In this document: in pieces, positions 8,400 to 62,002 of the stretch
How the letters are laid out: each line of letters begins with the position of its first letter
Position numbering within the stretch: position 1 is the first letter of the stretch
Assembly: GCA_040772005.1 (NCBI GenBank)
Contig: JAXGYZ010000002.1
Coordinates: forward strand, 101,546-165,545
Direction of reading: 5' to 3'
From: Anaerolineae bacterium
GTDB taxonomy: Bacteria > Chloroflexota > Anaerolineae > CG2-30-64-16
Length of the DNA: 64,000 bases
The notes under the pieces: model-generated
What the model saw: the letters and a program-made list of their open reading frames with translations, nothing else
Told to the model about the DNA's origin: nothing
Databases searched by the model: none
Program-made: the position numbers and the translations under genes

Positions 8400-10127
8400 T
8401 CAGTCCAGTTTGACCGTATACCCGCTGTCCTGGAGCAGCGCCAGCACGCGGGGCACGTTGGCCTCGGGGATGATGACGGCCTGCGCGGAGATGATCTCAC
8501 CGAGCAAGGGCGCAATCGCCGGGTCGGCGCGCAGACTGCCGAGCATACTGGCATCCGGCACGCGCAGCACCGCGCCGCGGGTGACGCGCAGCGCGCCGCC
8601 GAGCTGATCGTAGCGGCCAAGCGCGGCTGCAACCCTGGCCGGAACGGGCGCGCCGCCCGCGCGCTTCAGGAAGTCGAGCACGGCCTGGGCCTGGATGCCG
8701 GAAGCACGGGCTGCGGCCAGGCTGGCGCGCGTGATACGGTGGCGGGTGTGGGTGACGCTGCCCAGGGCGGGCCGCTCGTCCGCGCCGGCTGCCTCCGGCC
8801 CTGCGGCGACCAGCGGCTCGGTGATGCGGAGGAGGCGGAACCGGTCCAGCAGGGGGCATAACAGCGGCGCGCGCACCGTAAAATCGTCGCTCACGGCGAG
8901 ACGCACGGGCCGGGGCAGCTCCGCCGGGATGCCGCCCGCCAGCCACGCCTCGCCCCAGGCAGTGAGCCGGAAGGCCGTCGCCCCCTGCTCTGCTTCGTCC
9001 AGCGTGCCGCAGGCCACCGCTCCCAGCCAGTACAACGGCCCCGTCATCAGGAAGGCCAGCAGGCGGCCCTCGACCTGCTCCCACGCCTCGAAGCCGTTGA
9101 GGTACAGGCCGGTCTCGGCGTCCTTGAGATACCAGCCTGTGTAATTGCCATCGGGGCGCAGAAAGTCGGGGTCGGACGTCTTGAAGGCCGCGACCAGGTC
9201 TGTCAGCCGGTACCAGGCGGATGAGTCGAGCCGGGTGAGCGCTTCCAGCAGGGCGCGCCGCGGCAGCAGCGGGTCGTTGCGCCATTCGCCTTCGGGGCGC
9301 AGCGCAGGCACACGGCGCAGGTCGTTCCAGGTGATGCTGTCGCGCCAGGCGGCGAAGAGCTGCGTGACCTGCTCCCAGTGGGTCCCGCGCAGCCAGCGGC
9401 TGCTGGCCTGATGGTTGACGACCAGCCGCCCACGGTCGGCGGCCAGCCACCCGCAATCGGTCAGGAGGGCCAGCAGGAAGTCCAGCCGGACGGGATCGTC
9501 GCTCAACAGCCGCTGGCGAAGCTCGCGCGCGGCGCCCTCCGCCAGCGCGCCGGTGCGTTCGAGCGGGGCCGGCGCCGCGCGGAACATGGCGAGCACGGTG
9601 CAGGCATCCACTGCCAGGGTGTTGCGTGCGCGGTGGGCCTGGGCAGGCGCGGCGCTGGGCGTCAAGGCCGGGCCATGCGGCGTTGGCGCGGCCGCGGCCA
9701 GGCCCTCAGGGATGGGCAGGTCTTCGGGGATGTAGATGTATTCGAGCGGCCCCTCACCGAATTCAGCAAAGGCGCGGTAGATGAGTCCGCGATACCACAG
9801 TTCCTCTGCGGCGTTGGCCGGCGCACGCCACGTGGCTTCCCGCTCCAGCCGGCCCGGTCCGATGGGGCGGATTTCGCCGTGCAGCCGCGCGAACGCGGCC
9901 GCCTTCATGCGCCCGCCCGCAGACACGAGGCCATGCCATGCAGCCTGGGCTTCCGGCGTGCAGCCGGACATCGCAGCGCGCGTCGCGGCCGGGTCCGCCA
10001 GCGCGGCGGCCAGTTGGCCGGCCACGTCCGCGCGCACGTTGGATGCCAGGCTCACGTCGCGCAGTTCAGCGATGGCCCGCAGCAGGGCAAGCGGATGTTC
10101 ATTCAGGCTGACCAGGAGCGTGCGCAT
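8400..10127 (-). CDS. hypothetical protein with repeated XPB-N-terminal-like (helicase-associated, winged-helix) segments
   Basis: 575-aa Ala/Leu/Arg-rich soluble ORF. Segments such as ITRASLAAARASGIQAQAVLDFLKRAGGAPVP resemble the damage-recognition domain of XPB helicases. No enzymatic motif recognised. Confidence 0.35.
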   Translation of the reverse strand: MRTLLVSLNEHPLALLRAIAELRDVSLASNVRADVAGQLAAALADPAATRAAMSGCTPEAQAAWHGLVSAGGRMKAAAFARLHGEIRPIGPGRLEREATWRAPANAAEELWYRGLIYRAFAEFGEGPLEYIYIPEDLPIPEGLAAAAPTPHGPALTPSAAPAQAHRARNTLAVDACTVLAMFRAAPAPLERTGALAEGAARELRQRLLSDDPVRLDFLLALLTDCGWLAADRGRLVVNHQASSRWLRGTHWEQVTQLFAAWRDSITWNDLRRVPALRPEGEWRNDPLLPRRALLEALTRLDSSAWYRLTDLVAAFKTSDPDFLRPDGNYTGWYLKDAETGLYLNGFEAWEQVEGRLLAFLMTGPLYWLGAVACGTLDEAEQGATAFRLTAWGEAWLAGGIPAELPRPVRLAVSDDFTVRAPLLCPLLDRFRLLRITEPLVAAGPEAAGADERPALGSVTHTRHRITRASLAAARASGIQAQAVLDFLKRAGGAPVPARVAAALGRYDQLGGALRVTRGAVLRVPDASMLGSLRADPAIAPLLGEIISAQAVIIPEANVPRVLALLQDSGYTVKLD

Positions 10128-10219
10128 GGCAAGGATTATACCACTTGAAACAAACCTGACATACACTACGTTAAGTGAGTGTATAATGAGGATACGTTAC
10201 CGGAAGGAGTTGCTATTGC

Positions 10220-10579
10220 ATGGCGAAACAGACGGAGAACATCGGAGCGCGGGCAGGTGTGTTGAGCGAACTCGTGCGCAACGGCAAATTGGCGTGGAAG
10301 TTGTTCAAGGACCCGCGCGTCGCCTGGGCCTATAAGCTGATTATCCCGGGGATTGCCGGGTTGTATCTGTTTTTCCCGGCGGACCTGCTGCCGGACTTTT
10401 TCCCGCTGCTCGGTCAGTTGGACGACCTGGCAATCATTGCGTTGGCGGTCAAGTTGTTCATTGAGTTGGCGCCGAAGGACATCGTGAGTCAGTACCGCGA
10501 CGGCCAGCGCGCGGCTGGCTCCGCCGCCGGCGCCGACCAGGGGCATGTCGTGGATGGCGAGTATCGGGTCATGGACTGA
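10220..10579 (+). CDS. DUF1232 (YkvA-like) small membrane protein
   Basis: 119-aa ORF with the DUF1232 core (DPRVAWAYKLIIPGIAGLYLFFPADLLPDFFPLLGQLDDLAIIALAV). Confidence 0.6.
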   Translation: MAKQTENIGARAGVLSELVRNGKLAWKLFKDPRVAWAYKLIIPGIAGLYLFFPADLLPDFFPLLGQLDDLAIIALAVKLFIELAPKDIVSQYRDGQRAAGSAAGADQGHVVDGEYRVMD

Positions 10580-10580
10580 G

Positions 10581-10650
10581 GGAATTAGGAATTAGAAATT
10601 AGGAATTAAGAGTTGGGCATTCCCAATTTTCAATTCGTAATTCGCAATTC
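10581..10650. repeat. AT-rich palindrome of tandem GAATTAG-type heptamers (bidirectional terminator candidate); right arm overlaps the last codons of rimO
   Basis: ggaattaggaattagaaattaggaattaag / gaattgcgaattacgaattgaaaatt (reverse complement) form a long imperfect hairpin between the convergent DUF1232 and rimO genes. The right arm encodes the rimO C-terminus ELRITN. Confidence 0.55.
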
Positions 10651-12039
10651 ACCGAGCAGGTCGTACTCCAGCGCGCCGGAGATGCGCACCTGGGCCATCT
10701 GGCCGACGGGCAGCAGGCCCGGCACAACCACCAGCCCATCCACCTCCGGCGCATCGCGGTAGCTGCGCGCCAGCGACACCGGCTGGCGTCGCGCCCGCGC
10801 CTTCGCATGTCGCCCGCGCTTCTCAGCCACGACCAGCCCCGGCTGCGCGGCCATCTCCATCTCGCCCTGCGCCTCCACCAGCACTTCCAGTTGCCTGCCG
10901 ACCTGGGCCTGGTTGCGGATCAGCGAGATGCGCTGTTGGGCGGCCATCAATCGTGCATACCGCTCGCCCTTAACTTCCTCCGCCACCTGGTCCGGCATGT
11001 CGGCCGCGGGCGTGCCCGGCTCCGGGCTGAAGGTAAACACACCGACCTTGTCGAACTGGATGGCCTCCACAAAGTCGAGCAGGCCCTGGAACTCCGCTTC
11101 CGTCTCGCCGGGGAAACCCACGATGAACGTGCTGCGGAAGGCCATGTCGGGCATGGCCGCGCGCATCTGCGCGAACGTCGCGAGGAGCCGGTCCACGTTG
11201 CTGGGCCGGAACATGCGGCGCAGCGTGGCCGGATGGCCGTGTTGCAGCGGGATGTCCAGGTAATGACAGATGCGCGGGTCGCTCGCCATGACGTCGATCA
11301 GGCGCTGCGTGACGTGGCCCGGATACGCATACATGAGCCGCAGCCAGCGCACATCCGGCGCGCCGTGGAGGATGTCCCGGAGCAGGCCGGGCAGCGTGTC
11401 GGGCTGGCCCGCGTCGCGACCGTAATCCGTGGTGTCCTGTGCAATGAGGATCAGCTCGTGTGCGCCCGCGGCGGTCAGGTTGCGGGCCTCGGCGACGATG
11501 GCCTCCGGCGGGCGGCTGCGCAGCTTGCCCTTGAAGACCGGGATGGAGCAGAACGCGCAGGGTGCGTTGCAGCCGTCGCTGACCTTGAGATACGCGCTGC
11601 CGTTGACCACCGGCGGCCGCGGAGTCGCGTCGAGGAGCGGCTGTTCCGGGTCACCCAGCAGCGCGTAGCTGCCGAACGCGCGCTGCGCCTTGCCTCCCCG
11701 GAGCGCCTGGATGAACGGCACAATCTCCATCCAGCGCCGCGTGCCCAGCAGCCCGTCAACGCCCGGCACTTCCTGGGCGATGCGCGCGCCGTTGCGCTGG
11801 GCCATGCAGCCCGCGGCAATGAGCACCTGGCCCGGCCGCTTGCGGCCGGCGAGCTCGCGCAGGTTGGCGAGGGACTCGTCTTCGGCTGCGGCCAGGAAGC
11901 CGCACGTATTAACGATCAGGACATCGGCGTCGGTGGGCACGTTGGTGCCGTCATACCCTGCCCCGCCGAGCAGCATCGCCATGCCTTCGCTGTCAACCGT
12001 GTTCTTGGGACAGCCGAGCGTCATCAGGAAGTATCTCAT
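10630..12039 (-). CDS. rimO: ribosomal protein S12 methylthiotransferase RimO (radical-SAM MTTase with TRAM domain)
   Basis: MRYFLMTLGCPKNTVDSE N-terminal MTTase domain, a radical-SAM CxxxCxxC core (SDGCNAPCAFCSIP) and a C-terminal TRAM domain; 469 aa. Confidence 0.75.
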   Translation of the reverse strand: MRYFLMTLGCPKNTVDSEGMAMLLGGAGYDGTNVPTDADVLIVNTCGFLAAAEDESLANLRELAGRKRPGQVLIAAGCMAQRNGARIAQEVPGVDGLLGTRRWMEIVPFIQALRGGKAQRAFGSYALLGDPEQPLLDATPRPPVVNGSAYLKVSDGCNAPCAFCSIPVFKGKLRSRPPEAIVAEARNLTAAGAHELILIAQDTTDYGRDAGQPDTLPGLLRDILHGAPDVRWLRLMYAYPGHVTQRLIDVMASDPRICHYLDIPLQHGHPATLRRMFRPSNVDRLLATFAQMRAAMPDMAFRSTFIVGFPGETEAEFQGLLDFVEAIQFDKVGVFTFSPEPGTPAADMPDQVAEEVKGERYARLMAAQQRISLIRNQAQVGRQLEVLVEAQGEMEMAAQPGLVVAEKRGRHAKARARRQPVSLARSYRDAPEVDGLVVVPGLLPVGQMAQVRISGALEYDLLGELRITN

Positions 12040-12043
12040 AAGC

Positions 12044-12172
12044 TCTTTAAACCAACGGTTGCAGGTTGCATGTTACAGGTTCGCCGATCGCGTTTGGCTG
12101 ATCGCAATCGTATGTTAGCCTGTAGCCGACAACCTGCAACCTGTAACTTGTAAACCTTTAAACCTGTAACCG
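12044..12172. repeat. palindrome built from tandem GGTTGCA/GGTTACA heptamers
   Basis: Left arm ctttaaaccaacggttgcaggttgcatgttacaggtt and right arm aacctgcaacctgtaacttgtaaacctttaaacctgtaaccg are reverse complements. Located between the rimO start and the rodZ-like stop. Confidence 0.55.
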
Positions 12173-12173
12173 T

Positions 12174-13109
12174 TTAGCCGGCTGGCGTCGGCGTAACGGT
12201 GGTCTGGGGCGTGTCGGTCTGGCCGGAGGTCTCGGTGACGCCTTCCGGGTTGACGACCCAGGTGCGCTCGACGACCTGTCCCACGTTGCCCATGGTGCCC
12301 AGGTCTTCGCCGTTCAGGATGAGCGTGACCCCGCCGCCGTTGCCTGTGCGGATGGTAATCGAGTCCGCGGCCTCATAGACGCGCGAGGCGTTTGCATCGA
12401 GCGTGCCTTCCTCCGCGACCTCTCCGTCCACCAGGATACGCATCCATGCGCGCTGCGTAGTCACGACCTCTAACAAGAGCGCCGATACAAATTCAGGGGT
12501 GGCGGTCGGGCGCAGTGTCGGCGTCGCAGAAGCCTGCACTGTGGGCGTCGGCAGCGGCAGCAGGTCCGAGGTCGGCTCAGGCAGAGGCGCGGTCGGCGTC
12601 TCGGAGGGCTTCGGCGTGGCAGTGACAACCCACTGGGTCGCGGTGTTGGTGGGCGTGGCGCTGGCCGCGGGGCCAAACGCCGCCAGCGGATTCCAGCCCG
12701 GATTACGGTTCAACAGCCACCAGCCGCCCAGCGCTAGAAGCAAGACGAAGGCCAACGCAGCCACCCAGGGCAGCCAGCGTGACCCGGCCATCGGGTCCAC
12801 CAGCTCGACTTCCAGGGGCCGGTAATCAATCAGGCGCGGCTTGCCTGGCTCCGCGATCGCAATCTCCGGGTTGGTATCCCCGCTCTCTATGCTGTAGAGA
12901 TCGAGAACGCCCTCGACGTCCAGGCCGAGATACGCGGCATAGGTGCGCACGAACCCGCGCGCGACTGTGCCGCGCGGCAGGCTGGCATAATCACCATTTT
13001 CCAGGGCTTCGAGATATCTCTGGCGGATGCGCGTGACCGCTTCAACGTCGGCCAGGCTGAGTTGTTTCGCCGTGCGCGCCTCGTACAAAAGGCGCCCGAG
13101 CTCACTCAT
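12174..13109 (-). CDS. rodZ: RodZ-like cytoskeleton protein (XRE-type HTH, TM helix, Pro/Thr-rich linker, C-terminal DUF4115)
   Basis: Start at ATG 13109 (MSELGRLLYEARTAKQLSLADVEAVTRIR is an HTH_XRE motif), one TM segment, PT-rich linker, conserved C-terminal domain. Confidence 0.55.
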   Translation of the reverse strand: MSELGRLLYEARTAKQLSLADVEAVTRIRQRYLEALENGDYASLPRGTVARGFVRTYAAYLGLDVEGVLDLYSIESGDTNPEIAIAEPGKPRLIDYRPLEVELVDPMAGSRWLPWVAALAFVLLLALGGWWLLNRNPGWNPLAAFGPAASATPTNTATQWVVTATPKPSETPTAPLPEPTSDLLPLPTPTVQASATPTLRPTATPEFVSALLLEVVTTQRAWMRILVDGEVAEEGTLDANASRVYEAADSITIRTGNGGGVTLILNGEDLGTMGNVGQVVERTWVVNPEGVTETSGQTDTPQTTVTPTPAG

Positions 13110-13203
13110 ACGATGTTGTGTCCTGATACGTGATAGTAGACAGAACAAATATACCCGCGGCGGGGCGAAAAGTCAAAAACTATGCTTATCCGGCCCCCAT
13201 CTC

Positions 13204-13357
13204 TCAGGAATTCCAAATGTGGATTGCCAGGCATCCTGAGCGGAGGGTGTTGCGGAGCAACGCACGCAGTCGAAGGATAGCCACTGTGCAGGCGTGCTTC
13301 GACTACGCTCCGCTCCGCTCAGCATGCCTGCACCCTCGCGCACATCTGGAATTCCTG
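13204..13357 (+). mobile_element. MITE-like insertion with 17-bp terminal inverted repeats and a 9-bp flanking direct repeat
   Basis: TIR-left caggaattccaaatgtg (13204-13220) and TIR-right cacatctggaattcctg (13341-13357) are reverse complements with one mismatch. The direct repeat cccatctct sits immediately outside both ends (13195-13203 and 13359-13367). No ORF inside. Confidence 0.5.
13228..13330 (+). ncRNA. candidate structured RNA element, copy X (homologous to 51025-51165)
   Basis: Long P1 helix (CAGGCAUCCUGAGCGGAGG ... CUCCGCUCAGCAUGCCUG), inner hairpin GUGUUGC-GGAG-CAACGCAC, and a second helix GCAGUCGAAGG ... CUUCGACUAC. The helix-forming sequences are shared with copy Y while the enclosed hairpins differ. 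Confidence 0.4.
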
Positions 13358-13416
13358 CCCCATCTCTACTGCTTATTGCGCAAACATCCGCTTACGGGTA
13401 TCATGCGGGCAACCCT

Positions 13417-14109
13417 ATGCGCCGCAAAACTGTCCACCGCGCGCGTCGCGGCCTGCTGCTCATCATCGGCCTGGCGATCATTGCTTCGGTTTGGTCGGCG
13501 GAGCAGGTTGCGCGCGCCGGCTACGGGCCGGCATGGCTGCAATTCTTGTTCGCGGCCACCGGGCCTACGGGCGGCCTGCGCGTCGGGCTCGTCGCCGGCC
13601 ACCGGGGCAATGACTCCGGCACTGTCTGCCCGGATGGACTGACGGAGGTCGAGGTCAACACGCGCATCGCGGAACTGACCGCAGACCGGCTGCGCAGCCA
13701 GGGGATGCGCGTGGATGTGCTGGACGAACTGGATGCCCGGCTGTTCTTCTATCGCGCGGACGCTTTCGTCTCCATCCACACGGACTCCTGCCAGGCCAAT
13801 CTGAGCGGCTTCAAGGTTGCCCCGCCGGACGGCGGCAGCGCAGCCTCGCGGCGGCTGGCCGAGTGCCTGTGGGACGAGTACGAGGCTGCCAGTGGCCTGC
13901 CCCGCCATCCGACCACCATCACCCGGGATATGACCGAGTATCATGCCTTCCGCAAGCTGGCGCCCGGCACGCCCGCGGCCATCATCGAGCTGGGCTTCCT
14001 GGGCACGGATCGGGCGCTCCTGGTCGATGAGCCGGAGCGGCTGGCGGACGGCGTAGCCGCCGGCATCATCTGCTTTCTGACGCCGGCGATGGCGACCCAG
14101 GAGCCGTGA
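13417..14109 (+). CDS. N-acetylmuramoyl-L-alanine amidase (Amidase_3 family, cell-wall hydrolase)
   Basis: Signal/TM segment, then the zinc-amidase core GHRGNDSGTVCPDGLTEVEVN ... FVSIHTDS. Start taken at ATG 13417 (MRRKTVHRARRGLLLIIGLAI). Confidence 0.7.
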   Translation: MRRKTVHRARRGLLLIIGLAIIASVWSAEQVARAGYGPAWLQFLFAATGPTGGLRVGLVAGHRGNDSGTVCPDGLTEVEVNTRIAELTADRLRSQGMRVDVLDELDARLFFYRADAFVSIHTDSCQANLSGFKVAPPDGGSAASRRLAECLWDEYEAASGLPRHPTTITRDMTEYHAFRKLAPGTPAAIIELGFLGTDRALLVDEPERLADGVAAGIICFLTPAMATQEP

Positions 14110-15116
14110 TGAACCCCTATGAACGCATGACCGCGCGGCTGGCCGGCCAGCCGGTTGACCGCGTGCCCAACTTCAACATCTTCATGCAGTTTGCGAGCCA
14201 CCATATCGGGCAGCCGTTGAGCCGTTACTATCAGGACTACCGTGTGCTGTGCGACGCGAACTTCGCGGTGCAGGAGGCCTTCGACCTCGACATCCTGCAG
14301 GCCATCTCCGACCCGTACCGCGAGGCCGCGGACTTCGGCCTGCAGGTGGACTTTCCCGACGACAGCCTGCCGCTTGCCACGACGCCGCTGCTGCTCGACC
14401 CGGCGGACCTCGCCGCGCTGCGGCCCGTCGCACCGGAGGTCGGCCGGCGGATGAGCGACCGGCTCGCGGCCGTGCGCCTGTTCCGCGAGCGGGCCGGCGG
14501 CCGCGTGCCCATCATGGGCTGGGTGGAGGGCGCGCTGGCCGAGGCCGCGGACCTGCGGGGTGTCAGCGCGCTCCTGACGGACCTGGTCGACCGGCCCGCA
14601 TGGGTGGAGGAACTTGTGGAGTTCTGCGCCGAGGTCGGGGTGAGCTTCGCCCGCGCGCAGGTGGCCGCGGGCGCCGATATCATCGGGCTGGGTGACGCTA
14701 TTGCGTCACAGGTCTCCCCGCGCCTCTACCGGCAGTTCGCGCTCCCCTACGAGCAGCGCATCTTCGCGGCCGTCCACGAGATGGGCGCGCTGGCCCGCCT
14801 GCACATCTGCGGCAACACGACGCGCATCCTTGCAGACATGGCCGAGAGCGGCGCGGATATCATCGACGTGGACTGGATGGTGGATATGGGCCAGGCGGCG
14901 GAGGCGTTCGGCACGCGCGCGGCCGTCTGCGGCAACCAGGACCCGGTCGCGGTCATGCTCAACGGCACGCCCGCAGAGGTCGCCGCGCAGGTGCGCGCGT
15001 GCGTGATCGCGGGTGGCCCCCGCTGCTTCAGCGCCGCGGGGTGCGAGATACCCGACGAAACGCCGGTGGAGAATCTGCACGCACAGGTGCAGGTGCTGCG
15101 CGAGTGGGGTGTGTGA
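14106..15116 (+). CDS. uroporphyrinogen decarboxylase (URO-D / MtaA-like) family protein
   Basis: 336-aa URO-D fold signature (RVPNFNIFMQFASHHIG ... DIIGLGDAIASQVSP). ATGA start overlap with the amidase gene. Confidence 0.65.
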   Translation: MMNPYERMTARLAGQPVDRVPNFNIFMQFASHHIGQPLSRYYQDYRVLCDANFAVQEAFDLDILQAISDPYREAADFGLQVDFPDDSLPLATTPLLLDPADLAALRPVAPEVGRRMSDRLAAVRLFRERAGGRVPIMGWVEGALAEAADLRGVSALLTDLVDRPAWVEELVEFCAEVGVSFARAQVAAGADIIGLGDAIASQVSPRLYRQFALPYEQRIFAAVHEMGALARLHICGNTTRILADMAESGADIIDVDWMVDMGQAAEAFGTRAAVCGNQDPVAVMLNGTPAEVAAQVRACVIAGGPRCFSAAGCEIPDETPVENLHAQVQVLREWGV

Positions 15117-19315: not shown

Positions 19316-20383
19316 TTATATCACTTCGATGCCCGTACCCTCCACGACCTCACCGATCACCCAGGCCCCTTGCTCTGCGCGTGCGCAATCGGCCAGGAAG
19401 TCATCCAATCGCGCCTCCGGCACGGCCAGCAGCAGGCCGCCCGACGTCTGTGCATCGTGCAGCAGCATCTCCTCCCAGTCTGCCAGGGGGATCTTGTACG
19501 CGACATGCGGGTTGTAGAACGCATGGTTATTGAGTGTGCCGCCGGGAAAGATGAACTGCTGCGCATACTCGGCCGCGCCCGGCAGCCACGGCAGAGCCAG
19601 GAACCGGATGCGCAGGCAGACGCCCGCAGCCTCGGCCATCTCAAGGGCATGCCCCACCAAGCCAAAGCCGGTGATGTCCGTCGCACCTCGAACGTCCGCG
19701 ACCCTGGCCGCGCGTGAGGCGGCGCGATTGAGCCGCATCATGCTCGTAATGGCTGCGTCAAGGTGCTCCTGTGCAGCCTGCCCGCGCTTGACCGCGGTTG
19801 TGATGGTGCCCGTGCCCAGCGGTTTCGTCAGCACCAGCCGGTCACCGGCCCGCGCGCCGCCCTTCGCAAAGATGCGGTCCGGATGGACGAGACCGGTCAC
19901 GGCTAGCCCGTATTTCGGCTCCTTATCCTGGATAGTGTGGCCGCCCGCGACGGCCGCGCCCGCGGAGCGCACGACGTCCGCGCCCCCGCGCAGGATGTCT
20001 GCCAGGAGGTCGGCGGGCAGGTCGGGCGGGAACGCGGCGATGTTCAGCGCAAACAGCACCTCCCCGCCCATCGCGTAGATGTCGCTCAGCGCGTTGGCAG
20101 CCGCAATCGCGCCGTACTCGTAGGGCGTATCCACGACCGGCGTGAAGAAATCAAGCGTCTGAATGAGCGCCTGCTCGTCATTGAGCCGGTACACCGCGGC
20201 GTCATCCGGCGCGCCCAGCCCGACCAACAAGTTCGGGAATTCGGCGGGCGGAAATAGATTGTCCAGTGAGCGCAAGACCTGCGCCAGCTGCTCAGGCGGC
20301 AGCTTGGACGCTCAGCCCGCGCACGAGCTGAGGCTCGTGAGTTTGATGATTTGTTCGCGTGTCAAGAGAGGCGGCTCCTTCAT
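19316..20383 (-). CDS. selD: selenide,water dikinase SelD, selenocysteine-containing (in-frame UGA read as Sec)
   Basis: The tool ORF (319 aa) lacks the SelD N-terminus. Extending upstream in frame through TGA (plus coordinates 20312-20314) gives MKEPPLLTREQIIKLTSLSSCAG-U-ASKLPPEQ. The TGA aligns with the catalytic Cys/Sec position of the SelD glycine-rich N-terminal motif. ATG 20383 is preceded by an AAGGAG ribosome-binding site. Confidence 0.7.
20276..20311 (-). promoter_or_regulatory. putative SECIS hairpin downstream of the selD UGA
   Basis: mRNA segment GCGUCCAAGCUGCCGCCUGAGCAGCUGGCG contains the stem AGCUGC/GCAGCU with a 7-nt loop starting about 8 nt after the UGA. Confidence 0.35.
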
Positions 20384-20581
20384 ATGGTTGGCACATCCGG
20401 ACGGGGGGCTCCACCCTGCATCCTTCGACTGGCGGCCTTTCGCCCCTTGCGTTGAGCCGTTCACCCGCTCAGGATGCGTCTTTCGTCCATCGTCCATCGT
20501 CGACCGTCATTATACCCGCGCACAGAGGCCGGGGCCAATCATGCTATAATGTCGCGTATCCCAGTATGAGGTGACAGATTC

Positions 20582-23033: not shown

Positions 23034-23648
23034 CTATTCGTGTCCGTTATAGGCCATAGCCGGCTGCCAGACTTCCCAGACCTTGCCGACGAGCTTGGGG
23101 CCCGGGGTCAGGGTGGTCCCGCCCGGCTGCCAGCCCGAGGGCATGACTTCGCCGGTGGCGCGGGTGTGCTGGAAGGCCTTGACCTGCCGGATCAGCTCGG
23201 ATACGCTGCGGCCAACGCTCGGCGTCAGCACCTCCATCCCCTGGATGATGCCATCCGGGTCGATGATGAAGCGCCCGCGGATGTCGACGCCTGCATCCTC
23301 GTCATAGACGCCATAGGCCTGTCCGATCTTGCCGCCGCCATCGGACAGCATCGGGAACGGAATACCTTCGGGCGTCATCTTCGCGAGTTCTTCTTCGTGC
23401 CAGATCTTGTGTACGAAGCGGCTATCGGTGCTCAACGAGAGGACTTGGACGTCGAGGGCCTGGAGTTCGGGGTATTTGACGGCAACTGCCGACAACTCAG
23501 TCGGTCAGACAAACGTGAAGTCGCCGGGGTAAAAGCAGACGACTACCCAATGGCCCTTGTAGTCCGACAGTTTGACATTCTGGAATCCGCCCTTGAAATA
23601 GGCCGCGGCCTCGAAATCCGGGGCGGGTTTACCGACACGTGCAAGCAT
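23034..23648 (-). CDS. 2-Cys peroxiredoxin (AhpC/Prx1 family) with selenocysteine at the peroxidatic position
   Basis: Two adjacent tool ORFs (23505-23765 and 23034-23495) are one gene split by an in-frame TGA at 23505-23507. The joined sequence reads GDFTFV-U-PTEL, the universal Prx motif FTFVCPTE with Cys replaced by UGA. The resolving-Cys region and the rest of the thioredoxin fold follow. Start taken at ATG 23648 ([14 protein letters not shown]). Confidence 0.65.
23481..23504 (-). promoter_or_regulatory. SECIS-like hairpin immediately 3' of the peroxiredoxin UGA
   Basis: UGA-CCGACUGAGUUGUCGG-CAGUUGCC: stem CCGAC/GUCGG with a 6-nt loop right after the UGA, plus a second small stem GGCAGUUGCC. 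Confidence 0.4.
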
Positions 23649-23919
23649 TTTGGGCGCCTCCTGTGTGGGGGTGACTGGCGCGGCCGTGGGAGCACTCTCG
23701 CTTGAGATGATCCCCTTTGCCGGCTTGACGCACGAGTCCTTCGGTTCGACCTGTGGTGTGGTCACTCATGGCCTCCTTTCGTGCGATGCGATAGAACCAC
23801 TGGTGACAGAATACACGAAAGTCGACAGTGTTACTATGATATCGCGCAGGTAATCGCAAACCGTTCGCAGCAGCAGGGATCGCCCGATAAATCGTTGTAG
23901 GCGCGGAAAGCCCGCGCCT

Positions 23920-24058
23920 AAACCGATTCCAGAGTGAATGCCCCGGTCAGAACTGAGACAGGATTGACAGGATTGACGGGATTACTCTTGTAAATCCTGT
24001 CAATCCTGTCCAGAATCGCCGCTGGTTTTCACATTGGACTGAGTATAGGTGGCGCGGG
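23920..24058 (+). repeat. about 139-bp structured repeat element, copy A (family of three in this window)
   Basis: aaaccgattccagagtga...gtcagaactgag, then (GACAGGATT)x3 ... (AATCCTGTC)x3 forming a 27-bp-stem hairpin, then cagaatcgcc-CTCTGG-ttttcacattggactgagtatag. More than 90% identical to 60454-60592 and to the reverse complement of 61874-62002. Confidence 0.7.
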
Positions 24059-51165: not shown

Positions 51166-51264
51166 GTTTCTGCCCAGGTGAAGATTCGCTCCCGCCGAAA
51201 TCCCTTTTGACGATGACCGTTAACGGCGGTACAATTCACCTGCGAAACGAACAGGAGGTGAAGC

Positions 51265-52971
51265 ATGAGAAAAGGTCTGCCATTCGTTGCTTTGCTGGTT
51301 CTGGTCAGCCTGGTCATGTCCGCGTGTATGCCGTTGGCGCCGGTGCCGACGCCGGTGGCTGCCGAACCGACGCCGGTCGCGGAGCCGACCGTAGCTGCGG
51401 AGCCGACCATCGCGGCGGAGCCGGCGCCAGCGGCGGAACCCACCGCAGCCGCCGAACCTGCCGCGCCGGAACCTGAGGCGCCTGTGGACGCGGCCAAGAC
51501 GCTGCGCCTGCCGGATCTCGGCGGCCAGGCCGTGCGGGCGGTGACGGAGAATGCGTATCCGCCGTTGAACTTTGTGGACCCGGTGACGGGGGAAGCGGTG
51601 GGGTGGGAATACGAGGCGGTGAACGAGATCTGCCGGCGGCTGAACTGTGCGGTGGCGTGGAGCACGGTGTCGTGGGACGCCATGATCCAGGCGGTGCAGG
51701 ACGGGCAGTTCGACGTGGGGATGGACGGCATCACGATCACGGCGGAGCGGGCGACGCAGGTGGCCTTCTCGGCGCCGTACCTGGTGTCGCAGCAGTACAT
51801 GCTGGTGCGGGCGGACGAGACGCGCTTCACGGATGCGGCGACGTTTGCGGCGGACGAGGGGCTGCTGATCGGGTCGCAGGCGGGGACGACGAACTTCTAC
51901 GTGGCCGTGTACGAGGTGCTGGACGGGGACGAGCAGAACCCGCGCATCAAGCTGTTCGAGACGTTCGGGGCGGCGGTGCAGGCGCTCTTGGCGGGGGATG
52001 TGGACCTGGTGCTGATGGATGCGGCGTCGTCGCGCGGCTACATCGGGGCCAACCCGGACCGGCTCAAGCTCGTCGGTGAGCCGCTCGGCACGGAGGAGTT
52101 CGGCTTCATCTTCACCCCCGGTTCCGCGTTGGTGGAACCCTTCAATGCGGCCCTCGCGCAGATGCGCGCAGACGGCTATCTCGACTACCTGAACAACAAA
52201 TGGTTCTTCCTGACCGACCCGAACGCCCAGGACCAGTATGACCAGTTGCCCGACTTGCAGGGTCAGCCGGTGCGGGCGGTGACGGAGAATGCGTATCCGC
52301 CGTTGAACTTTGTGGACCCGGTGACGGGGGAAGCGGTGGGGTGGGAATACGAGGCGGTGAACGAGATCTGCCGGCGGCTGAACTGTGCGGTGGCGTGGAG
52401 CACGGTGTCGTGGGACGCCATGATCCAGGCGGTGCAGGACGGGCAGTTCGACGTGGGGATGGACGGCATCACGATCACGGCGGAGCGGGCGACGCAGGTG
52501 GCCTTCTCGACGCCGTACCTGGTGTCGCAGCAGTACATGCTGGTGCGGGCGGACGAGACGCGCTTCACGGATGCGGCGACGTTTGCGGCGGACGAGGGGC
52601 TGCTGATCGGGTCGCAGGCGGGGACGACGAACTTCTACGTGGCCGTGTACGAGGTGCTGGACGGGGACGAGCAGAACCCGCGCATCAAGCTGTTCGAGAC
52701 GTTCGGGGCGGCGGTGCAGGCGCTCTTGGCGGGGGATGTGGACCTGGTGCTGATGGATGCGGCGTCGTCGCGCGGCTACATCGGGGCCAACCCGGACCGG
52801 CTCAAGCTCGTCGGTGAGCCGCTCGGCACGGAGGAGTTCGGCTTCATCTTCACCCCGAACTCGCCCCTGGTCGAGCCTTTCAACGCGGCCTTGGCGACGA
52901 TGAAGGCCGATGGGTTCATCGACCACCTGAACACGCGCTGGTTCTTCATGTACGATCCGGCCGCGGAATAG
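51265..52971 (+). CDS. polar-amino-acid ABC transporter substrate-binding lipoprotein with an internal tandem duplication giving two type-3 SBP domains
   Basis: Lipobox (LVMSAC) and an (AEPTxA)n low-complexity linker. Two consecutive roughly 246-aa SBP_bac_3 domains whose core nucleotide sequences (51532-52118 and 52270-52856) are identical except for one substitution (Ala/Thr in FSxPYLV). Confidence 0.7.
51532..52856 (+). repeat. 738-bp-period direct tandem duplication inside the SBP gene (587-bp cores more than 99.8% identical)
   Basis: 51532-52118 matches 52270-52856 base for base apart from one substitution; the flanking roughly 150 bp of each copy are clearly diverged. Confidence 0.8.
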
Positions 52972-59642: not shown

Positions 59643-60452
59643 TCAGAGCCGGGCATAGCGGTCGAAGCCGCCCTCGCTGGCAATGGTCTGGCCGGTAATC
59701 CAGCGCGCGTGGTCGCTGTGGAGGAACTGTACGAGCCGCGCCGCGTCATCCGGCAGCCCCCAGCGGCCGGCGGGGAACAGCCGTGTGACCTCGTCGTAGA
59801 CCGGGCCGGTCAGGTAGCCGGTGTCCGTGGGCCCCGGATTAATACAGTTCACCCGGATCTGCCGGGGCGCCAGCGCCGCGGCGGCCTGGCTGCACAACCC
59901 CCGGATGGCTTCCTTCGACACGGCATACGCAATCTCCGAGATCATCGGCCCGAGATACTGCCCGCTGGTGAACAGGGTGATGGCCCCGCCCGCCGCGGCG
60001 ATCTGCCCGGCAAAGGCCTGGATCATCAGCATGGCCGCGCGCACGTTGACAGCCAGGTGCGCATCGATGTGTTCGGCGGTCCAATCACCCAGCGGCGCAT
60101 GGGTGGAATAGGCGTGGTTGAGCACCAGGCCGTCCAGGCTGCCCAACCGGGCAGCGGCTTCGGCCACCACCCGCGCGGGTGCGTCGGGCTGTGCCAGGTC
60201 GGAAGGCGTCAGTGCGACGACCGTCAGCCCCGCCGCCGCCAGCTCCGCAACGAAGTCGTGCGTCCAGTCCTGTGCCGCATCGGGGTACTGCAATGCGGCA
60301 TCGTAGTCTGCATGGCCGTGGACCGCAACCGCTGCCCCGGCCGCTGCGCAGCGCCGGGCGATGGCCGCACCGATGCCCAGCGACCGGCTCACACCGGTGA
60401 CGAGGATGTGCCGGCCCTGCAACGACAGGGAAGTATTCGTATCGTGTTCCAC
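59643..60452 (-). CDS. short-chain dehydrogenase/reductase (SDR) family oxidoreductase
   Basis: TGVSRSLGIGAAIA (TGxxxGIG cofactor motif) and the Ser-Tyr-Lys catalytic triad region (YAVSKEA). Confidence 0.7.
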   Translation of the reverse strand: MEHDTNTSLSLQGRHILVTGVSRSLGIGAAIARRCAAAGAAVAVHGHADYDAALQYPDAAQDWTHDFVAELAAAGLTVVALTPSDLAQPDAPARVVAEAAARLGSLDGLVLNHAYSTHAPLGDWTAEHIDAHLAVNVRAAMLMIQAFAGQIAAAGGAITLFTSGQYLGPMISEIAYAVSKEAIRGLCSQAAAALAPRQIRVNCINPGPTDTGYLTGPVYDEVTRLFPAGRWGLPDDAARLVQFLHSDHARWITGQTIASEGGFDRYARL

Positions 60453-60453
60453 T

Positions 60454-60592
60454 AAACCGACTCCAGAGTGAGTACCGCAGTCAGAACTGAGACAGGATTA
60501 ACAGGATTGACGGGATTACTCCTGTAAATCCTGTCAATCCTGTCCAGAATCGCCTCTGGTTTTCACATTGGACTGAGTATAGAACGTTGCCA
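60454..60592 (+). repeat. about 139-bp structured repeat element, copy B (direct orientation), 15 nt 3' of the rlmD-like gene
   Basis: More than 90% identical to 23920-24058, including the (GACAGGATT)3/(AATCCTGTC)3 hairpin and the CCAGAG ... CTCTGG-TTTT outer stem. Confidence 0.7.
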
Positions 60593-61860: not shown

Positions 61861-61873
61861 GTTATTGGGCCCT

Positions 61874-62002
61874 CTATACTCAGTCCAATGTGAAAACCAG
61901 AGACGATTCTGGACAGGATTGACAGGATTTACAGGAGTAATCCCGTCAATCCTGTCAATCCTGTCTCAGTTCTGACCGCGGTACTCACTCTGGAATCGGT
62001 TT
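61874..62002 (-). repeat. about 139-bp structured repeat element, copy C (inverted orientation), 14 nt 5' of the rlmD-like gene
   Basis: The reverse complement matches copies A and B. Together with copy B it brackets the rlmD-like gene as an inverted pair. Confidence 0.7.

Follow-up and report, generated by a model that had tools for sequence, protein, structure and literature searches.

The question raised by this locus was whether an open reading frame for selenide,water dikinase (SelD), called without the N-terminal catalytic segment of its family, is the downstream part of a longer gene that runs through an in-frame TGA read as selenocysteine (Sec), and where such a gene would begin. The window, that is, the whole 64,000-nucleotide stretch of DNA from an Anaerolineae bacterium that was analysed, carries this reading frame on the minus strand, ending at TAA 19318..19316. 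The gene-caller start was TTG 20275, which lies downstream of TGA 20314..20312, in frame with the rest, and also downstream of AAG (20303..20305, minus strand), the codon of the catalytic lysine. Translation across the TGA gave ...LTSLSSCAG-U-ASKLPPEQ..., or MKEPPLLTREQIIKLTSLSSCAG-U-ASKLPPEQLAQVLRSLD. The corrected coding sequence (19316..20365, minus strand) has a TTG start, one Sec codon, and the TAA stop, and was delimited from profile matches, alignments to PDB chains, and in-frame stops in relatives. Its product would be a protein of 349 amino acids, MTREQIIKLTSLSSCAG-U-ASKL..., with Sec18 and Lys21.

Identification of the protein as SelD was unambiguous when Cys was substituted for the TGA. 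The NCBIfam equivalog model for selD, TIGR00476, was matched with 384 bits against a cut-off of 125, and a second selD equivalog, NF002098, with 356 bits against a cut-off of 299; the selD profile match spanned positions 1-309 of 311. The PurM-like AIRS (PF00586) and AIRS_C (PF02769) domains were present on all close homologues. The E. coli enzyme (PDB 3u0o) aligned over residues 10-351 (E 7e-76); its Cys17 was matched by the TGA and its Lys20 by the lysine three residues further, so that the numbering of Sec18 and Lys21 is close to that of E. coli. Both Cys17 and Lys20 are required for catalysis by E. coli SelD. In the Aquifex aeolicus SelD chain, ...SSGCAAK... lay over ...CAGUASK... of the window and the TGA fell on the corresponding Cys, a residue that is Sec in the native protein. 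The motifs DDAAVY, DFFxPxVD, SDxxAMGG, and TDxTGFGL were all conserved relative to E. coli SelD, and the Asp motifs that bind ATP and metal (DDAAV, DFFxPxVD, SDxxAMGG, and TDxTGFG) were invariant in 16 homologues. The sequence-only reading of this DNA had proposed that the gene is SelD with TGA at the catalytic Sec/Cys position, and that readthrough restores the catalytic N-terminus; the profile scores and the position of the TGA on Cys17 bore out the first proposal, and the alignment of the extended protein with the E. coli and A. aeolicus N-termini the second. It is very probable, judging from these comparisons, that the gene at 19316..20365 encodes SelD with a UGA-encoded selenocysteine as residue 18. 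Selenophosphate synthetase activity is predicted from family membership.

Conservation of the TGA was examined in at least 80 loci, one genome per species, with 46-67% identity to the window SelD. Most were metagenome-assembled genomes (MAGs) of Chloroflexota (Anaerolineae, Caldilineae, Chloroflexia, and Dehalococcoidia), with some Firmicutes, Photobacterium, and others. Among the matches listed, the column of the TGA contained TGA in 72 of 80 loci and TGT or TGC in the remaining eight; in other words, the catalytic column was Sec or Cys in 80 of 80, and Lys at +3 was likewise present in all 80. The peptide upstream of this column, (I/V)(R/K)LTxLxx(C/A)AG, was in frame in all 80 of the listed loci. 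The 17 codons before the TGA and the 12 codons from the TGA to TTG 20275 were conserved in frame in 72 of the listed loci, which belong to several phyla. The identical TGA was also found in four independent assemblies of close relatives (L081, L082, L083, and L084). An in-frame UGA aligned with the Cys of homologues and protein-level conservation on both sides of it are two marks of a selenoprotein gene, and each was found at this locus.

The residues near the catalytic position differed between the two types of SelD. Cys at -3, giving C-x-x-U, was found in 45 of 72 Sec-type and none of the eight Cys-type proteins among the matches listed, while Cys at +2, giving C-G-C-K, was found in six of eight Cys-type and eight of 72 Sec-type proteins in the same list. 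The second thiol therefore precedes the catalytic residue in the Sec type and follows it in the Cys type. The C-x-x-U pair might act as a gate on SelD activity by forming a selenenylsulfide.

A second selenoprotein gene, for a peroxiredoxin (AhpC/TSA), was found 3 kb from selD on the same strand (23034..23647, minus strand). It runs from ATG 23647, which is preceded by a GGAGG ribosome-binding site, to TAG 23034, and its TGA (23507..23505) lies at the position of the peroxidatic Cys (FTFV-U-PTE). With Cys substituted, the product matched Pfam AhpC-TSA with 134 bits. L081 and L082 have the same TGA, and in their records the gene is split into two AhpC-TSA fragments. In the window a hairpin (CGGC/AGUU/GCCG) starts 17 nt downstream of the UGA. 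The window protein resembles the Prx selenoprotein family in placing U where the T/SxxU/C motif has its peroxidatic Cys, and Prx is listed among the bacterial selenoproteins (PMC1794560). When the window was scanned systematically for in-frame TGAs flanked on each side by coding signal, those of selD and the peroxiredoxin were the only candidates. The presence of a Sec-peroxiredoxin in the same window is independent support for Sec decoding, and its conservation in relatives strengthened the earlier proposal that the organism is a selenocysteine decoder.

The machinery for Sec decoding was sought nearby and in relatives. The window contained no tRNA genes at all, and hence no tRNA-Sec, and a tblastn search with E. 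coli SelA and SelB found neither selA nor selB in the window or in L081 and L082. Likewise, the two closest relatives had no selA, selB, or tRNA-Sec at distances of up to 10 kb from selD. Absence of the machinery from the organism is nevertheless very unlikely, because the window contains two conserved selenoprotein genes. In at least 10 related loci, selA and selB were found beside a UGA-type selD, and tRNA-Sec was also present in eight of these 10. For example, a Chloroflexia MAG (L071) has a compact cluster at 10013..14459 of selD with UGA, selB on the opposite strand, tRNA-Sec, and selA, and similar clusters were found in at least nine other related loci. Three overlapping ARAGORN calls of tRNA-Arg(tct), 40 nt apart, in a Dehalococcoidia MAG (L064, 19373-19530) are probably a repeat or an artefact. 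The organism of the window is, on the strength of its genes, a probable selenocysteine user.

Several other features of the window were recorded. The neighbourhood of selD and the peroxiredoxin gene adjoins genes of the acetyl-CoA (Wood-Ljungdahl) pathway at approximately 24-46 kb: translations of window ORFs resemble CooC, subunits of the CFeSP, and acetyl-CoA synthase, and the syntenic relatives (in L081, 1-5400) encode CooC, a pterin-binding methyltransferase, FolD, and MTHFR. The window showed no formate dehydrogenase. A repeat of approximately 130 nt is present in three copies with 94-97% identity (23918-24048 and 60452-60583 on the plus strand, and 61873-62002 inverted), of which the second and third flank a gene at approximately 60.6-61.9 kb in inverted orientation. 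This repeat holds tandem GACAGGATT(G/A) units and forms a single long hairpin with almost perfect pairing (-63.4 kcal/mol, z -8.9). Rfam gave no match to it, and it resembles intergenic elements of the MITE or REP kind. Inside an ORF of 569 amino acids (51262..52971) lies a direct repeat of 669 nt whose copies (51529-52195 and 52266-52933) are 96% identical, and the encoded protein therefore has a large internal duplication.

Three other explanations of the TGA were considered. The first is that the UGA is read as an amino acid other than Sec, either because the code has been reassigned (to Trp or Gly) or through near-cognate readthrough (inserting Cys or Trp). Sec insertion is itself predicted from the genes, which leaves some room for this explanation, yet it is very improbable. 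TGA ends 17 of the 42 long ORFs with high GC3 in the window; it is therefore a normal stop there and the code has not been globally reassigned. Moreover, both of the plausible in-frame TGAs in the window stand at the catalytic Cys of known selenoprotein families, homologues among the matches listed switch only between TGA and Cys codons at this position, and the UGA-type selD adjoins selA and selB, and mostly tRNA-Sec, in the relatives described above.

The second explanation, that the TGA is a genuine stop and that the gene encodes a truncated SelD from TTG 20275 or is a decaying pseudogene, is scarcely credible. The truncated form is what gene callers have produced for the whole clade, and Sec machinery is not visible within the 64-kb window. 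A product from TTG 20275 would, however, lack the equivalents of both Sec/Cys17 and Lys20, and neither the in-frame conservation of the codons before and after the TGA nor the invariant Lys at +3, both among the matches listed, fits with termination at this codon. The third, a sequencing or assembly error converting TGC or TGT to TGA, would need only one base change and has a negligible chance of being right: the occurrence of the identical TGA in four independent assemblies excludes it, and the same TGA stands in the 72 of 80 more distant loci among the matches listed.

The start was placed by comparison with the closest relatives fetched, which are syntenic with the window: L081 (GCA_964614645.1), with a SelD 90% identical, L082 (GCA_034429055.1), 92% identical, and L083, a further contig with the same SelD protein as L082 (92%). 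The sequence-only reading had described an AAGGAG ribosome-binding site preceding an ATG at 20383. The start region reads CAT-ATG-AAG-GAG-CCG-CCT-CTC-TTG-ACA, so AAGGAG (20375..20380, minus strand) supplies codons 2-3 after that ATG and follows it; as a Shine-Dalgarno sequence it lies 9 nt upstream of TTG 20365..20363, and this part of the reading was given up. AAGGAG or GGAAGGAG was kept at the same spacing in L081 and L082. The ATG itself (20381..20383, minus strand) has no purine-rich tract upstream and is probably not the start. The candidate starts in L081-L083 have a 1-nt indel between them, which leaves the upstream ATG or TTG out of frame; specifically, the counterpart of ATG 20383 is out of frame in L081 and is both replaced and out of frame in L082. 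An in-frame TGA stop lies 5-6 codons before the conserved TTG in L081-L083, with no start codon between. Since an in-frame stop precedes the TTG in the closest relatives, TTG 20365 was taken as the start; the out-of-frame ATG and the in-frame stop together place the gene at 19316..20365 and not at 19316..20383. ATG 20383 was rejected as the start, being out of frame in relatives and followed by AAGGAG, and ATG 20497 was also rejected on comparison with relatives. More distant relatives have MTREQIKLT, MTRDEIIRLT, or MTYEQIRLT at the N-terminus. From these comparisons the most likely start of selD is TTG 20365, which AAGGAG would serve. A promoter-like sequence, TTGGCC-18-TATAAT, was noted upstream of selD (20509..20538, minus strand) as a consensus match only; its TATAAT is common to the window and L081 and is not present in L082.

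Bacterial Sec insertion elements (bSECIS) lie within the coding sequence, and the RNA downstream of the UGA was examined for hairpins. Two are present after the UGA, and both are specific to the UGA forms of the gene. The proximal hairpin, H1 (20286..20304, minus strand), pairs AGCUGC with GCAGCU around the loop CGCCUGA, has a predicted energy of -9.1 kcal/mol, and has a loop that starts 13 nt after the UGA. The distal hairpin, H2 (20269..20285, minus strand), pairs GGCGCA with UGCGCU around the loop GGUCU, has an energy of -8.2 kcal/mol, and has a loop that starts 32 nt after the UGA. The hairpin named in the sequence-only reading is H1, which is indeed there at 20304..20286; H2, which that reading had missed, is the stronger SECIS candidate.

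The window taken alone gave little indication of structure. Against shuffled sequences the downstream fold had z from -1.05 to +0.28, which is unremarkable for G+C-rich sequence, and against synonymous recoding the hairpin z of -1.2 to -1.4 was not significant. Rfam returned no match for the whole window at gathering thresholds, nor for 20150..20450 at E ≤ 10, though a curated bacterial SECIS model may not exist. No consensus structure emerged when RNAalifold was applied to 73 UGA-type sequences; for this reason the named structures were tested individually and compared with synonymous recodings, in which synonymous codons were resampled for each locus from the gene's own codon usage and the RNA was refolded.

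This comparison covered 73 Sec-type genes, which are phylogenetically related, and a small control group of eight Cys-type genes from the matches listed. In the 16 codons that follow the UGA, the Sec-type genes were more stable than their recoded versions, with a mean z of -1.42. Among the same matches, the signal was stronger in the region of H1 (nt 10-30 after the UGA), where the Sec-type genes had a mean z of -2.25 and 82% folded at -4 kcal/mol or lower, and in the region of H2 (nt 28-48), where the mean z was -2.18 and 86% reached that energy. The eight Cys-type genes listed had mean z of -0.23 and +0.13 in the two regions, respectively.

The two hairpins differed in how their pairing was conserved. 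The register of H1 varies among lineages: the window's register was paired in 49% of cells, with weak covariation, and the majority register in 54%, among the matches listed. H1 in its exact register was rejected as a column-conserved helix on the 49% pairing and the weak covariation. H2 kept one register throughout the set: among the matches listed, 81% of cells were paired, and each of the seven pairs had changed in both partners; for example, GCG...CGC (Ala...Arg) is replaced by ACU...AGU (Thr...Ser). The G and U of the H2 loop were at least 90% conserved in the listed matches. For the two-helix structure as a whole, none of 500 shuffles reached the observed score, and pairing was 69.7%, falling to 50% or less once the partners were slid. 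A competing long-range stem of 7 bp, UGAGCGU with GCGCUCA (20267..20314, minus strand), includes the UGA and competes with H2. It appears in the 51-nt minimum free energy fold of the window, and its pairing is possible in close relatives as well; the majority of distant relatives have CGC-CCN there and do not form it.

In the bSECIS model, as quoted in PMC13188914, the loop is 3-9 nt and has G within its first two positions (mostly G[G/U]), the stem is at least 4 bp, the minimum free energy is -7.5 kcal/mol or lower, and the spacing from UGA to loop is 16-37 nt. H2, with its 5-nt loop GGUCU, 6-bp stem, spacing of 32 nt, and energy of -8.2 kcal/mol, lies within all of the limits quoted there, and H1, at 13 nt, falls outside the quoted spacing. 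Because H2 is compatible with the model and the spacing of H1 is only 13 nt, H2 is the likely SelB-binding element and H1 would be an accessory. A broader suggestion is that the UGA-type selD of Chloroflexota and allies has a distinct two-hairpin recoding element, consisting of a register-variable proximal hairpin and a conserved distal one whose G-U loop lies approximately 32 nt after the UGA, maybe combined with C-x-x-U; this is offered as a doubtful possibility.

The following sequence of events is proposed by analogy with the established bacterial Sec pathway, from which SelB binding, Sec insertion, and the identity of the functional hairpin are all drawn. With AAGGAG 9 nt upstream to position it, the ribosome would begin translation at TTG 20365. 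Once it arrived at UGA 20314..20312, a stem-loop just downstream in the coding sequence would recruit SelB-GTP-Sec-tRNA(Sec). This stem-loop would most likely be H2, with H1 perhaps an accessory or a lower part of the structure. Sec would then be inserted in place of termination. In the finished protein, the flexible N-terminal loop C-A-G-U-A-S-K would bind selenium and, together with Lys21, make selenophosphate from selenide and ATP.

Comparison with known systems showed few differences. E. coli SelD (3U0O) belongs to the same family and shares the fold-defining motifs, the N-terminal loop, the Lys20 equivalent, and the Asp motifs. It has Cys17 (G-A-G-C-G-C-K), and therefore needs no SECIS, whereas the window SelD has Sec and a Cys at -3 (C-A-G-U-A-S-K). 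The apical loop of the E. coli fdhF element is GGUC, which the GGUCU loop of H2 resembles, though in H2 the distance from UGA to loop exceeds that of fdhF by approximately 14 nt. H1 is at an fdhF-like distance from the UGA, but with a spacing of only 13 nt, and SelB binding is a prediction from the RNA sequence. Sec-containing SelD is found in other bacteria, including A. aeolicus (PDB 2YYE/2ZOD), Haemophilus influenzae, Clostridia, and Deltaproteobacteria, and these share with the window the catalytic UGA, a SECIS within the coding sequence, and truncation by annotators; the window SelD differs from them only in lineage, probably that of an uncultured Chloroflexota organism, and in details of sequence, namely the TTG start, the CxxU, and the two hairpins. 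SelD was the second largest bacterial selenoprotein family in 2006, with 38 of 285 selenoproteins (PMC1794560, Table 1), and has been called the 'second most expansive' selenoprotein family (PMC13188914). Selenoproteins of Chloroflexi were counted already in 2006 (PMC1794560, Table 2), and neither Sec-containing SelD, known for decades, nor its misannotation is new to the literature (PMC1794560, PMC13188914, PMC13326102). A Sec-SelD with an in-frame TGA is a well-documented arrangement, so the finding is correct and already known; the only elements of mild novelty are the pair of hairpins downstream of the UGA and the C-x-x-U, which is typical of SelD in this Sec form.

The truncation of this gene by automated annotation, also anticipated in the sequence-only reading, extends well beyond the window. 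The best 120 SelD homologues in a collection of 5.8 billion proteins were nearly all approximately 300-328 amino acids long, mostly 319-320, and start after the TGA. Proper annotation of the window gene would be 19316..20365 with a transl_except for Sec at 20314..20312, and the split peroxiredoxin gene nearby needs to be annotated as one reading frame through its TGA. Essentially every close relative in the database is stored in N-terminally truncated form and calls for the same repair. The two-hairpin element with C-x-x-U, if true, would be a sub-class of bSECIS and of the active-site loop and not a new system. The finding opens no new biological question, and its meaning is that of an annotation fix and of a marker for an organism that probably uses selenocysteine.
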